Shown in pieces: positions 33,465 through 47,680 of a stretch of 64,000 bases of DNA (position 1 is its first letter; each line of letters opens with the position of its first letter). The position numbers were made by a program, and so were the translations under genes. Under the pieces are notes generated by a model. The model did not search any database and was not told the DNA's origin. It saw only the letters and a program-made list of their open reading frames with translations. Source of the stretch: Amphiscolops sp. MND2022 (taxonomy: Eukaryota); assembly GCA_964187785.1 (NCBI GenBank), contig OZ076409.1:4714001-4778000 (forward strand). The letters run 5' to 3'.

Positions 33465-33484
33465 CAACTTTTTCATCTTAATAA

Positions 33485-34297
33485 ATGTATGAAACTCCGT
33501 CTCTTCATAAGTTTGGTTATTCTAGTGAACAGCTAAAACTGAGGGAATATCAGGAGCTAAAAGATATGATAAAAAGTCAAGAAAAATTAGCCCAAATAAC
33601 CCATTCCAAATTAAAAGAAGATTTGCAACGCGATTTTGAAAATGACATAGAAAATCAAGAGAAATTAATAGAAGAAAAAATACTAGACGTGAAAGGGCAT
33701 CAAACACTAGACCCACAGGAAATTCAAGATGTTTTATTAAACACAAAGTTAATGAATGATATTTATTCCCAGTTTTCAGACCTTTCAAAAACCATAAATA
33801 AATTAGAACAAAATATGAAAAAATCTTTCGCCGAACAAAGAACTGCTTTAGTAAATGAGGTACTAAATTTAATACACAACAATAGTTTTGAAATGTTAAC
33901 AGTCCGTAATTTAAAGTTTATGAGTCAGGTGGGTCAAGCTGGAATGATTTTAAATGAAGATGAAATTAATAAAATTTTTAATAGCCTAGATCAAAATAAA
34001 ATTACTATAACTAACAACATAATTCAACTGCTTTATGACAAAGGCTTGTTCGATTCCTTTCCCAATAAAGATCAAGCTTTTGCAAATTATCTAACTTTTA
34101 GTGAATCCTATTTAAAGGAAAAGTATGGAAAAACAATACCTACTTCAGATGGTGAATATTATCTGTCGGATTTAGAATATTCTACCAGACAATCAATTCT
34201 GGAGTCATTGAAAAAAGATTCCTATAAAGACCTTGTTGATATGAAACACAGAATGAAATTAACACCAACGGAAATAAATTTCATTTTATATGATTAA
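33485..34297 (+). CDS. Polinton hypothetical protein (coiled-coil-rich, 270 aa)
   Basis: Long intact ORF just inside the TIR, ATAAATG start, no recognised motif. Confidence 0.8.
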   Translation: MYETPSLHKFGYSSEQLKLREYQELKDMIKSQEKLAQITHSKLKEDLQRDFENDIENQEKLIEEKILDVKGHQTLDPQEIQDVLLNTKLMNDIYSQFSDLSKTINKLEQNMKKSFAEQRTALVNEVLNLIHNNSFEMLTVRNLKFMSQVGQAGMILNEDEINKIFNSLDQNKITITNNIIQLLYDKGLFDSFPNKDQAFANYLTFSESYLKEKYGKTIPTSDGEYYLSDLEYSTRQSILESLKKDSYKDLVDMKHRMKLTPTEINFILYD

Positions 34298-34300
34298 TAA

Positions 34301-35011
34301 ATGGAACAAAAACTCTATCCCTCTCTGACCCCCGCGACAGCTAACGCAACGGCCTCTCCCCCCACACCATATGATGTAGAATCAATGATAAATAAGCGAT
34401 TGCAAAGCGAATTACAAAAAGTAAATAGTTTCAATAATTCTATTCAAAACATTAGTCTAATGATGAAATATTATGAAATGGAAGAAAAGAAATACAAACA
34501 GAAATACAACAAATACAAGCTAATAAATAACTTAATTAACTCCCTCGATGGTATTATAGTGATTGGAACAACTTCAGCATCAATCTCACTAAGTATTACT
34601 GGTGTGGGTATTATAGTTGTTCCAATCGCTGCAGGAGTTGGTTGTACAACTGGTATCCTTGTTAAGATTTGTTCTAGTTATTTGAAGAAAAAGGAGCAAA
34701 ATTATAAACTTAAGTACACTATTATTCAGAAGACTCTTGACGACTTTAGACAACTTTATGTCACTAGCCTAAAAGACAACTGTATAGATGAAAAAGAATA
34801 TCATCGATTTGTGACTCAATTTGAAAATTATCAGGCGACAGCTAACGCAACAGCTAACGCAACAGCTAACGCGACAGCTAACGCGACAGCTAACACAACT
34901 TCACAGGAAATTCACACAAAATCACACAAAATCACAGCTTCGCATACAAAATCACAAGTAGCTTCACACACACCACCAACAATACCACTTAAACCACACA
35001 ATTTTTTATAA
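34301..35011 (+). CDS. Polinton membrane-active protein with hydrophobic hairpin (possibly the adintovirus 'GasderminX' family)
   Basis: Gly/Ala-rich hydrophobic segment LDGIIVIGTTSASISLSITGVGIIVVPIAAGVGCTTGILV flanked by basic helices and a SLKDNCIDEKEY motif; ATAN repeats. Confidence 0.7.
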   Translation: MEQKLYPSLTPATANATASPPTPYDVESMINKRLQSELQKVNSFNNSIQNISLMMKYYEMEEKKYKQKYNKYKLINNLINSLDGIIVIGTTSASISLSITGVGIIVVPIAAGVGCTTGILVKICSSYLKKKEQNYKLKYTIIQKTLDDFRQLYVTSLKDNCIDEKEYHRFVTQFENYQATANATANATANATANATANTTSQEIHTKSHKITASHTKSQVASHTPPTIPLKPHNFL

Positions 35012-35133
35012 TTAATTTATTCAATTTTAACATAAAAAATAAAATAAAAATTAACACTAATAATTGAAAAATATACTATTGCGAAGCTACACAAAATATG
35101 CTGCCATTAAATTCATAAATTTATTATAAATAA

Positions 35134-45872: not shown

Positions 45873-46886
45873 TCATATTTTGATGATTTGAATTGTGAAG
45901 GTGAGTGTCTCCCCGTTGAAATCAACTGAATCATGATTAGAGTCCTCAAGGAAAAATTGAATGGTGTCCAGTCGTGTTTTGTTAATTGATTTGTACAAAA
46001 CAGTTGTGGGTTCTTTTATAATTTTATATCCGGGAGGTGCGCTTAAATTGAAAGAAAATAAAATTTGCTCTCGTATACCATTAACAATTGAACCATCTAC
46101 ACAGTCGCACTTCAGATGAACTTTGTCGGTGGTTGTTATCATGACTGGTTTTTCTGAAGTGTGAGTTCCGGGTGGGTAATCACGTTGTGTAAAACCCAGG
46201 ACTTTGTTAAGTTCGGAGTTAAAATGAATAGGGTTTGAGGTTGTTAAAACTGATTTCATTGATATTGTGTCGGGTATTATGTTGAATTTAAAATCATAAT
46301 CACTTTCATTAATTATTTGTTTTACGGAAGCATTGATATCAACTAATTCATATGCTCCTGGTGTTAGTTGTATTCCAAAGGAATCATGTTCAATTTCAAA
46401 GTCAGGAATATGTATTTGTTGATCAGGATAGTTAAAAACTTCAATTAATTTCTTGAGTTGGTTAAAGTCTTTTCTAGTAAGTTTTTTCTTCTTTTTAGTA
46501 TAACTATAAGTTATAAGTGTATTAGTTTTTTCTATAAATTTATCATCAGATGTTTCATACAAATCCTTTATTTTTGGCACTAATTCAGTGTCAACTCTAT
46601 ACTCTTCGAGTTGTTGTTTTGTTAGAAGAATTTCAAGGTTGTTATTCTTTTCAGTAATGTTATATACAGTGTTGTATACTTCTAGGCTTGTTACTCCCAT
46701 CATCCATTTTTCAGGCAGTAGTAATGGAACATCAAATGAGAAAGATTCTTTTTGTTTAGTCATTTTAAATTCTAGAGTTTCTTGTGGTTTAGAATGAGTA
46801 TTTTCAACAATTTCTTGATTAGATTTTGCAATACTTAAAAGAAGAGATTCTTTTTTATCATATGTTACGAAGGTGGATAGATCCAT
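45873..46886 (-). CDS. Minor capsid protein (single jelly roll, Polinton PX/penton)
   Basis: VYNTVYNITEKNN, LTPGAYEL, KVLGF, HLKCDCVDGSIVNG, PPGYKIIKEP, VDFNGETLTF. Confidence 0.88.
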   Translation of the reverse strand: MDLSTFVTYDKKESLLLSIAKSNQEIVENTHSKPQETLEFKMTKQKESFSFDVPLLLPEKWMMGVTSLEVYNTVYNITEKNNNLEILLTKQQLEEYRVDTELVPKIKDLYETSDDKFIEKTNTLITYSYTKKKKKLTRKDFNQLKKLIEVFNYPDQQIHIPDFEIEHDSFGIQLTPGAYELVDINASVKQIINESDYDFKFNIIPDTISMKSVLTTSNPIHFNSELNKVLGFTQRDYPPGTHTSEKPVMITTTDKVHLKCDCVDGSIVNGIREQILFSFNLSAPPGYKIIKEPTTVLYKSINKTRLDTIQFFLEDSNHDSVDFNGETLTFTIQIIKI

Positions 46887-46922
46887 TTATTAGGAAAAAA
46901 ATCCTTTTTTCTCAGCTCCGCA

Positions 46923-47147
46923 TTATAGATTAAATTGTTTGAATCCACTAGCGGAAATGTTATTTATAAATTCTTGCCTATCTTTTGATAATGTTTTCTT
47001 ATGTGTGAAACTCTGCGGCTTCGATGAATTTTTTCCATGATTTTGATTTTGATTGTGAAGCTGTTCTGCGGAGCTGTGCGCGAGAGCTGGCGCGAAGCTG
47101 CGCGAGATAATTTTATATTGAGTTGAATAATTATTAATTTTCTTCAT
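46923..47147 (-). CDS. Small basic Polinton protein (74 aa)
   Basis: ATAAATG start overlapping the protease stop (ATGA); ends LSKDRQEFINNISASGFKQF. Confidence 0.6.
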   Translation of the reverse strand: MKKINNYSTQYKIISRSFAPALAHSSAEQLHNQNQNHGKNSSKPQSFTHKKTLSKDRQEFINNISASGFKQFNL

Positions 47148-47605
47148 TTATTAAGTTTGAAAGTTTGGTAGTATAAATTTAGTACTGCATTTTTGAACCC
47201 AATTTTATTTGTGAGATACAGTGTGTATAAACAATACGCCGCGCAATAACTGTCGTTGGTCTGAATTTGATATTCTGAATAAATACCATTTTTAATATGA
47301 TTAAGTATATTAGTTGGGGGTGGGCAGCCATATGAATCAAAATAATTTTGATTTGTAAACATAACCCAATGTGTTCCCACTGAGGGATGTAAGTTAACTA
47401 TACCACTGGTAGTGTTAAACTTATCATCTCTCATGTATATTCCACAGCTTTGCCCACACACTGTATTTATTTCGCCGGAGGCACCAAGCCTATCAAGTAT
47501 TTCTTTTATTTTTACATTGGAAGTTGCTTCGTTTTTTAGTCCGTATTTTTCAACAAATTCTTTGAATGATAAATAATTGCGAAGCTGTGTTAACTGTCGT
47601 GCCAT
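47144..47605 (-). CDS. Adenain-like (adenovirus/Ulp1-type) cysteine protease
   Basis: GTHWV (His), YFDSYG (Asp), QIQ (oxyanion Gln), YCAAYC (Cys). Confidence 0.92.
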   Translation of the reverse strand: MARQLTQLRNYLSFKEFVEKYGLKNEATSNVKIKEILDRLGASGEINTVCGQSCGIYMRDDKFNTTSGIVNLHPSVGTHWVMFTNQNYFDSYGCPPPTNILNHIKNGIYSEYQIQTNDSYCAAYCLYTLYLTNKIGFKNAVLNLYYQTFKLNK

Positions 47606-47680
47606 TTATTAGTTATTTTTCATTGGTGTGTATTAATATTGTACGAGGCTGCGCGTGGCTAAAATTATTTCCCATGTGGT

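Follow-up and report, generated by a model that had tools for sequence, protein, structure and literature searches.

A TAAATG start motif and an upstream T box at the genes of an Amphiscolops Polinton: a probable compact promoter

We have analysed a stretch of 64,000 nucleotides (nt) of DNA from Amphiscolops sp. MND2022 (contig OZ076409.1, positions 4,714,001 to 4,778,000), referred to here as the window, whose own positions are used throughout. The window contains a complete Polinton/Maverick element of about 15.5 kb (32820-48325) with 12 open reading frames (ORFs) across both strands, bounded by long terminal inverted repeats, with a 6-bp target-site duplication on either flank (Table 1). 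Together with these ends, the element has the gene content of a Polinton, with a polymerase, an rve integrase, a double-jelly-roll capsid protein and an A32/FtsK-like ATPase. All 12 of its genes start at ATAAATG, the core of which, TAAATG, is conserved in diverged families of the element and is accompanied by a T-rich box at a fixed distance upstream; the two together very probably serve as a promoter of some kind.

Table 1. Genes and other features of the Polinton element, in window positions. Positions given with a minus sign are relative to the start codon; lengths are in amino acids (aa) or nt.
Feature	Position	Strand	Start motif	Remarks
Left target-site duplication	32814..32819			TCATAT; identical 6 bp at the other end
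Left terminal inverted repeat, 645 nt	32820..33464	+		99% complementary to the right repeat; begins AGTAG
ORF1, 270 aa	33481..34297	+	ATAAATG 33481-33487	TTT at -14 to -12; no Pfam family
ORF2, 236 aa	34297..35011	+	ATAAATG 34297-34303	Hydrophobic middle; in-frame ATAN repeats
Probable protein-primed family B DNA polymerase, 1289 aa	35130..39003	+	ATAAATG 35130-35136	Assigned indirectly, by homology (see text)
Major capsid protein, 418 aa	39198..40458	-	ATAAATG 40452-40458	Double jelly roll; PF21738 6.1e-22; T6 run ending at -8
rve-type integrase, 303 aa	40536..41451	-	ATAAATG 41445-41451	PF00665 3.3e-11, above cut-off
A32-like packaging ATPase 1, 419 aa	41467..42730	+	ATAAATG 41467-41473	PF04665 2.3e-07, above cut-off; TTT at -14 to -12
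TTAGTGA/TCACTAA words	42770..43080			Direct and inverted array; intergenic, between the two ATPase genes
Second A32-like ATPase, 370 aa	43108..44224	+	ATAAATG 43108-43114	PF04665 2.5e-04, below curated cut-off; cysteine-rich N-terminus
ORF353	44213..45278	-	ATAAATG 45272-45278	Homologues in families 2 and 3
ORF180	45301..45847	-	ATAAATG 45841-45847	Cysteine-rich N-terminus; T7 run ending at -8; conserved in three families
ORF337, candidate minor capsid (penton) protein	45873..46890	-	ATAAATG 46884-46890	T7 run ending at -9; homologues in families 2 and 3
ORF74	46923..47151	-	ATAAATG 47145-47151	Start overlaps the protease stop
Candidate adenain-like cysteine protease, 153 aa	47144..47609	-	ATAAATG 47603-47609	Weak link (see text)
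Right terminal inverted repeat, 645 nt	47681..48325	-		Pairs with the left repeat
Right target-site duplication	48326..48331			TCATAT; matches the left copy

Pfam searches place four of the ORFs, namely the capsid protein, the rve integrase, the A32-like ATPase and, more weakly, the second A32-like ATPase. The 1289-aa ORF has no direct Pfam polymerase match, and a PDB sequence search with it was uninformative; its assignment is indirect and goes through its C-terminal 388 aa, which match metagenome ORFs (best E value 4e-66, locus L080; 1e-65 for locus L086), the L086 ORF itself matching PF03175 (DNA_pol_B_2) at 6.9e-16 and containing the same endonuclease VII-like insert that the window ORF carries (there matching Endonuclease_7 at 6e-05) beside a zinc-finger-like N-terminal region. 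The candidate protease gave no direct Pfam or PDB match and is tied to its class by a weak link, a BLASTP match (2e-04) to an ORF of locus L083 that has a sub-threshold Peptidase_C5 match of its own. ORF337 is put forward as a candidate penton protein from its place within the capsid gene group. No protein family was found for ORF180, and for the ORFs that lack an assignment Pfam at E values up to 1, PHROGs and atlas look-ups were uninformative. The Pfam searches found no RNA polymerase domain, multisubunit or other, in any of the 12 proteins, in agreement with an earlier note on this DNA, which had stated that the element encodes no such enzyme.

That note had drawn attention to an ATAA before the ATG of all 12 ORFs, and every start codon it pointed to is indeed the first ATG of its ORF. 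The window as a whole has 29 occurrences of ATAAATG, as compared with 17.4 +/- 4.5 in shuffled versions, none of 100 of which reached 29. Within the element there are 541 ATG triplets on the two strands, 32 of them in TAAATG and 20 in ATAAATG, with all 12 gene starts included; the 529 ATGs that do not start a gene are preceded by ATAA in eight cases (1.5%), which matches the chance value of about 0.015 per gene that had been estimated beforehand. Restriction to true gene starts is equally clear from the ORFs. Twelve of the 15 ORFs of at least 70 aa within the element start at TAAATG, and the three exceptions are an antisense ORF, an overlapping ORF and one that lies within an inverted end; outside the element the figure is 0 of 48, and the 29 TAAATG found there open no ORF of at least 50 aa. 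The motif is also present where there is little room for it. The integrase and ATPase 1 genes diverge from ATGs at 41447 and 41471, with a gap of 23 nt, and the motif of ORF74 overlaps the stop of the candidate protease gene, which ends at 47144, the ATG of ORF74 being at 47147; both arrangements had been described before and are correct. At 10 of the 12 starts the surrounding sequence reads AATAAATG, which contains AATAAA.

The Polinton is adjoined by a BEL/Pao-type long terminal repeat retroelement (51311-58321) that is split over four ORFs encoding a DUF1759 gag-like protein, an aspartyl protease with a dUTPase domain, a reverse transcriptase/RNase H and an integrase. Its ORFs start at GAAAATG, ACAATG, CACATG and AAGATG, none of them TAAATG, so that the description of retroelement starts as AAAATG holds for one of the four and fails for the other three. 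Five other long ORFs in the window likewise lack a TAAATG start.

A second element is seen when gene starts are aligned. We pooled 36 starts from four lineages (those of family 3, described below, having been chosen because they have TAAATG), and find T in 24 of the 36 at -14, in 29 at -13 and in 28 at -12. The corresponding binomial p values, with T taken at 0.33 in the background, are 3e-05, 5e-09 and 4e-08; C and G hardly occur at these positions. Forty TAAATG sequences from the same elements that do not start genes serve as controls and have T at the three positions in 17, 11 and 12 cases, the difference from gene starts giving Fisher p values of 4e-06 at -13 and 3.5e-05 at -12. Two or more T within -14 to -12 are present at 31 of the 36 starts as compared with 11 of the 40 controls (Fisher p = 2e-07). 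Since TAAAT begins with the T at -3, the peak at -13 falls on the tenth base upstream of it. The looser observation that a T-tract is often found upstream is also correct, in that 7 of the 12 window genes have a run of at least four T within -35 to -4.

In the host genome (1.07 Gb in 1929 contigs) there are at least 2853 candidate capsid genes; the 100 that were scored are 93-100% identical, 98 of them without a stop. Beyond the window we read one full sister copy, one copy of a second family, one of a third and a 1.2-kb piece of a rearranged subfamily. The sister copy, in which the polymerase and ATPase genes are broken and the capsid is 93% identical, has ATAAATG at all 12 starts, and in 30 copies of the same family (family 1), with three promoters examined in each (capsid, integrase and ATPase 1), TAAATG is present in 88 of 90 instances, the remaining two being uncounted because they did not align. 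Because the copies of family 1 are so similar, conservation among them says little. Family 2, in which all genes lie on one strand, is far more distant (capsid 42% and polymerase 47-49% identical) and has TAAATG at 15 of 15 starts, preceded by A, T or G. The subfamily with a different gene order has the motif at both of two starts, each reading TTAAATG; a capsid subfamily (409 aa) with about 80% identity exists, a figure that does not refer directly to the rearranged piece. Since the preceding base varies across families, the invariant core is TAAATG and not ATAAATG.

Family 3 is represented by an old, decayed copy with a capsid about 24-28% identical, and retains TAAATG at seven of nine starts, one of the seven having been cut off from its ORF by a frame break; the other two are each one base off the motif, which indicates that the motif decays once the genes are dead. 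A different kind of change is seen in the gap between the integrase and ATPase 1 genes (window 41448-41470), where 20 of the 30 family 1 copies (L001-L030) have an 11-nt insertion, which makes the gap 34 nt long instead of 23 and alters the integrase N-terminus, with TAAATG retained at both starts. We also note some further properties of the family 2 copy (L065+L063+L064; G000:C8:60002386-60018201), which has inverted ends of about 380 nt, two tandem paralogues (459 and 464 aa) that have no counterpart in the window copy, and an AATTTCT-like box at about -16 to -10 before most of its genes.

TAAATG is not the usual start context of the host. Among 18 host gene starts, from three histone genes, eight HSP70-family and tubulin loci and seven actin-family loci, there is not one with TAAATG or with T at -3, where A, G or C is found instead; sharing of the ATAAATG context by host genes, which would have spoken against a signal particular to the element, is therefore not observed. 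Each host start is a prediction from sequence, taken as the first in-frame ATG upstream of the Pfam match; one of the 18 (L074) is doubtful and two of the actin-family loci are close paralogues, and three further tubulin loci were left out of the count as the stretch read contained no ATG. The histone genes of this host form long arrays in which a 3.63-kb unit is repeated in tandem (contigs C67, C82, C33, C4 and others), and all 150 histone matches scored, of 6411 candidates, are in such arrays.

More distant Polinton-like contigs from metagenomes lack the motif. Fifteen metagenome loci encode polymerases that are 32-39% identical to that of the window, and in a scan of nine loci TAAATG was at no ORF start on L082, L083, L086 and L089 and at 2 of 14 on L090; L083 has ORFs with weak homology to the capsid and protease. 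The motif is therefore not general to Polintons, but is specific either to the Polinton lineages of this genome or to the clade that they form. Capsid queries (the window protein, P0127 and P0134) found no relative among viral contigs, and among protein sequences from other organisms there are capsid relatives of 52% (P0121) and 37% (P0126) identity. L090 (30% GC, 12.9 kb of 19 kb) has an ATATA-type word within 10 nt before most of its ORFs, several of which are preceded by a TTATTTTCT box, and these words may form a separate promoter code.

The Polinton has several repeat features besides its ends. Each terminal inverted repeat contains a 17-bp unit repeated 6.3 times (33028-33134 and 48011-48117), and the 380-nt gap between the ATPase genes is full of TTAGTGA/TCACTAA words in a pattern resembling a binding-site array. 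Short tandem repeats, mainly of 12-nt units, lie in frame within many of the ORFs (34838-34899, 44477-44506, 35443-35475, 40818-40844, 41551-41610, 43340-43375, 45051-45073 and 47059-47107); one 12-nt unit, read as ATAN, is shared by two different genes on opposite strands, and GC-rich units related to the in-ORF repeats fill the intergenic segments 39023-39062 and 40473-40534. Elsewhere in the window, four consecutive minus-strand ORFs (266, 166, 353 and 313 aa) at 58539-62800 have no Pfam family.

The description of the initiator as poxvirus-late-like in the earlier note is borne out by the TAAATG over every start codon and the T-rich element at the tenth base upstream. A 2025 review describes vaccinia late promoters as having a conserved TAAAT that overlaps the start codon and usually has a G after it, together with a conserved T at the tenth nucleotide upstream and several less conserved T nearby (PMC11980589), and to judge by the sequences the two-part layout of the Polinton matches this published one. 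Slippage of the poxvirus polymerase at the three template T of the initiator gives rise to 5' poly(A) leaders, and yeast linear plasmids, with a TAAAN initiator, likewise have such leaders (PMC6211774). Many genes of a deep-branching fish poxvirus are marked by TAAATG (PMC4542343), and endogenous mavirus-like elements bear the late motif of their giant-virus helper (PMC8547959).

We propose that each Polinton gene is served by a separate promoter, about 20 nt long and consisting of the T-rich box at -14 to -12, with its peak at -13, and the invariant TAAATG initiator, whose ATG would be the start codon. Transcription would begin in the A-run of TAAATG, leaving the unfavourable T at -3 outside the mRNA, and the transcripts may carry a short non-templated 5' oligo(A) leader, as those of poxvirus late genes and yeast linear plasmids do. 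We infer a compact promoter with an initiator from the restriction of the motif to true genes, its abutment on the ATG, its partner at fixed spacing, its survival of divergence, rearrangement and insertion, and its decay in a dead copy; that two diverging starts are only 23 nt apart implies that each promoter is very short. As to what reads it, we assign a probability of about 0.5 to the host nuclear transcription machinery, possibly aided by a factor that the element encodes, with no second virus needed. The thousands of near-identical, mostly intact germline copies fit autonomous activity better than dependence on a giant virus, and the likeness to poxvirus late promoters would then reflect either shared ancestry of Polinton-derived viruses or convergence.

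Several points weigh against this proposal. The transcript start at TAAATG is a prediction from sequence, a search of sequencing runs with 8.8 kb of the element having brought up no RNA run, and the host comparison concerns one genome with starts inferred from Pfam matches. There is no consistent TATA-like box about 30 nt upstream of the 12 starts, where the capsid gene has a GC-rich repeat, and ATAAA itself was rejected as a TATA box because transcription would then begin inside the ORFs. We know of no animal RNA polymerase II initiator of this form, and the two-part match to the vaccinia layout has no ready explanation if the polymerase is that of the host. Two other kinds of signal were considered and rejected, T5NT-type terminators, which occur in about half of family 1 only, and the baculovirus-type TAAG late motif, which is not general.

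One rival to the host machinery is a pox-like large DNA virus that co-infects the cell, with its RNA polymerase and late factors reading the same promoter; the element would then be an integrated-virophage-like entity that wakes only upon infection. We consider this unlikely, even though both promoter parts agree with the vaccinia description, the literature that pairs TAAATG with 'late promoter' concerns poxviruses among the matches listed, and the fish poxvirus has many genes marked by TAAATG. Virophages and endogenous mavirus-like elements, which carry the late motif of the helper, offer a precedent, the presence of the motif on all genes including those for the polymerase and integrase is as reported for virophages, and the element has no RNA polymerase domain of its own. 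Yet no helper virus is known, the likeness being to poxviruses in general, and the earlier note's suggestion of helper dependence finds no direct support in any result. VLTF3 (PF04947) and the capsid protein of nucleocytoplasmic large DNA viruses (PF04451) have no matches in the 1.07-Gb genome, a negative that is weak, given that the control genomes are also matchless and that a missing endogenous giant-virus copy does not exclude infection. Dependence on infection would moreover require repeated survival of infected germ cells to account for thousands of near-identical intact germline copies. The host is probably not an insect, its repeat arrays giving 221 matches of the TTAGGG type as compared with six of TTAGG, and poxviruses are not known from hosts other than insects and vertebrates.

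The remaining explanations dispense with a promoter altogether. TAA-ATG could be a signal for translation, either as a start context or for stop-start re-initiation on a polycistronic RNA, and the single-strand arrangement of the 15 family 2 genes with their short gaps, the one window gene pair in which stop and start overlap, and the A at -2 and -1, which suits the A-rich context of the host, are all in keeping with this. The TAA is, however, almost never the stop of the upstream gene, the gaps being 20-380 nt with two of the starts diverging, and the presence of T at -3 in 36 of 36 element starts but 0 of 18 host starts argues against a role in translation context; a T at this position would be poor for translation in a host whose genes avoid it, but would do no harm if transcripts start in the A-run that follows. 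Since the T box 10 nt upstream is also left unexplained, we regard a translation signal as improbable. We give still less credence to polyadenylation, in which the AATAAA within AATAAATG would end the upstream mRNA and its place beside the ATG would follow from tight packing: the sequence is present at 10 of the 12 window starts, but AATAAA is found at only one of the 15 family 2 starts as compared with TAAATG at all 15, and for the two diverging genes there is no preceding gene whose mRNA could be ended. Functionless inheritance, with the motif frozen in a young family, would be compatible with the 93-100% identity of family 1 copies, but is hardly credible when the motif is kept between families at 24-42% capsid identity with differing gene orders and is re-formed across the 11-nt insertion, and when the decayed family 3 copy has lost it at two of nine starts by single-base differences.

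Polintons are usually assumed to use ordinary host promoters, and a two-part signal at each gene amounts to a short, testable regulatory code for a Polinton clade. It has a practical use in gene calling, in that it sets the 12 true Polinton genes apart from three spurious ORFs, and the thousands of intact copies in one genome offer a natural system for mapping start sites. The identity of the transcribing machinery is now a testable question. The result bears on whether animal Polintons can act like virophages and on the origin of giant-virus promoters. It is conceivable, if doubtful, that this clade is keyed to the late transcription of a pox-like virus or, as the mirror of that idea, that poxviruses inherited their promoter layout from Polinton-like ancestors and that the layout is older than giant viruses; if keyed to a pox-like virus, the element would be without precedent in an animal germline as an antiviral element that is virophage-like and inducible.

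The element can be compared with several known systems. Other Polintons, Mavericks and adintoviruses have the same polymerase, integrase, capsid and A32-like ATPase, as well as long inverted ends and a 6-bp duplication, and the literature searched (subscription journals and supplements lay outside its scope) gave no link between them and the motif or a poxvirus-like promoter. Virophages and mavirus-like elements are also small, integrating, capsid-encoding members of the same wider group without an RNA polymerase of their own, and also have one short motif just upstream of the ATG that is common to their genes. Their motif differs, however, being TCTA in an AT-rich context in mavirus-like elements, where it matches the late promoter of CroV, as opposed to TAAATG; their hosts are protists with tens of copies, whereas the Polinton is in an animal with thousands of copies and no identified helper. 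The yeast pGKL linear plasmids share a protein-primed polymerase and resemble the Polinton in the TAAAN initiator of their genes; they are, however, cytoplasmic, with a poxvirus-like RNA polymerase and capping enzyme of their own and a separate upstream element. Poxvirus late promoters (vaccinia, mpox and salmon gill poxvirus) are like those of the Polinton in having TAAAT plus G over the start codon, a T at the tenth base upstream with more T around it, and an overall length of about 20-30 nt. The likeness is one of sequence, and the settings are different: poxviruses replicate in the cytoplasm and encode their own polymerase and late factors, whereas the Polinton is integrated in the nucleus and has no RNA polymerase, and poxviruses restrict this promoter to post-replicative genes whereas the Polinton has the motif on every gene, those for replication included.

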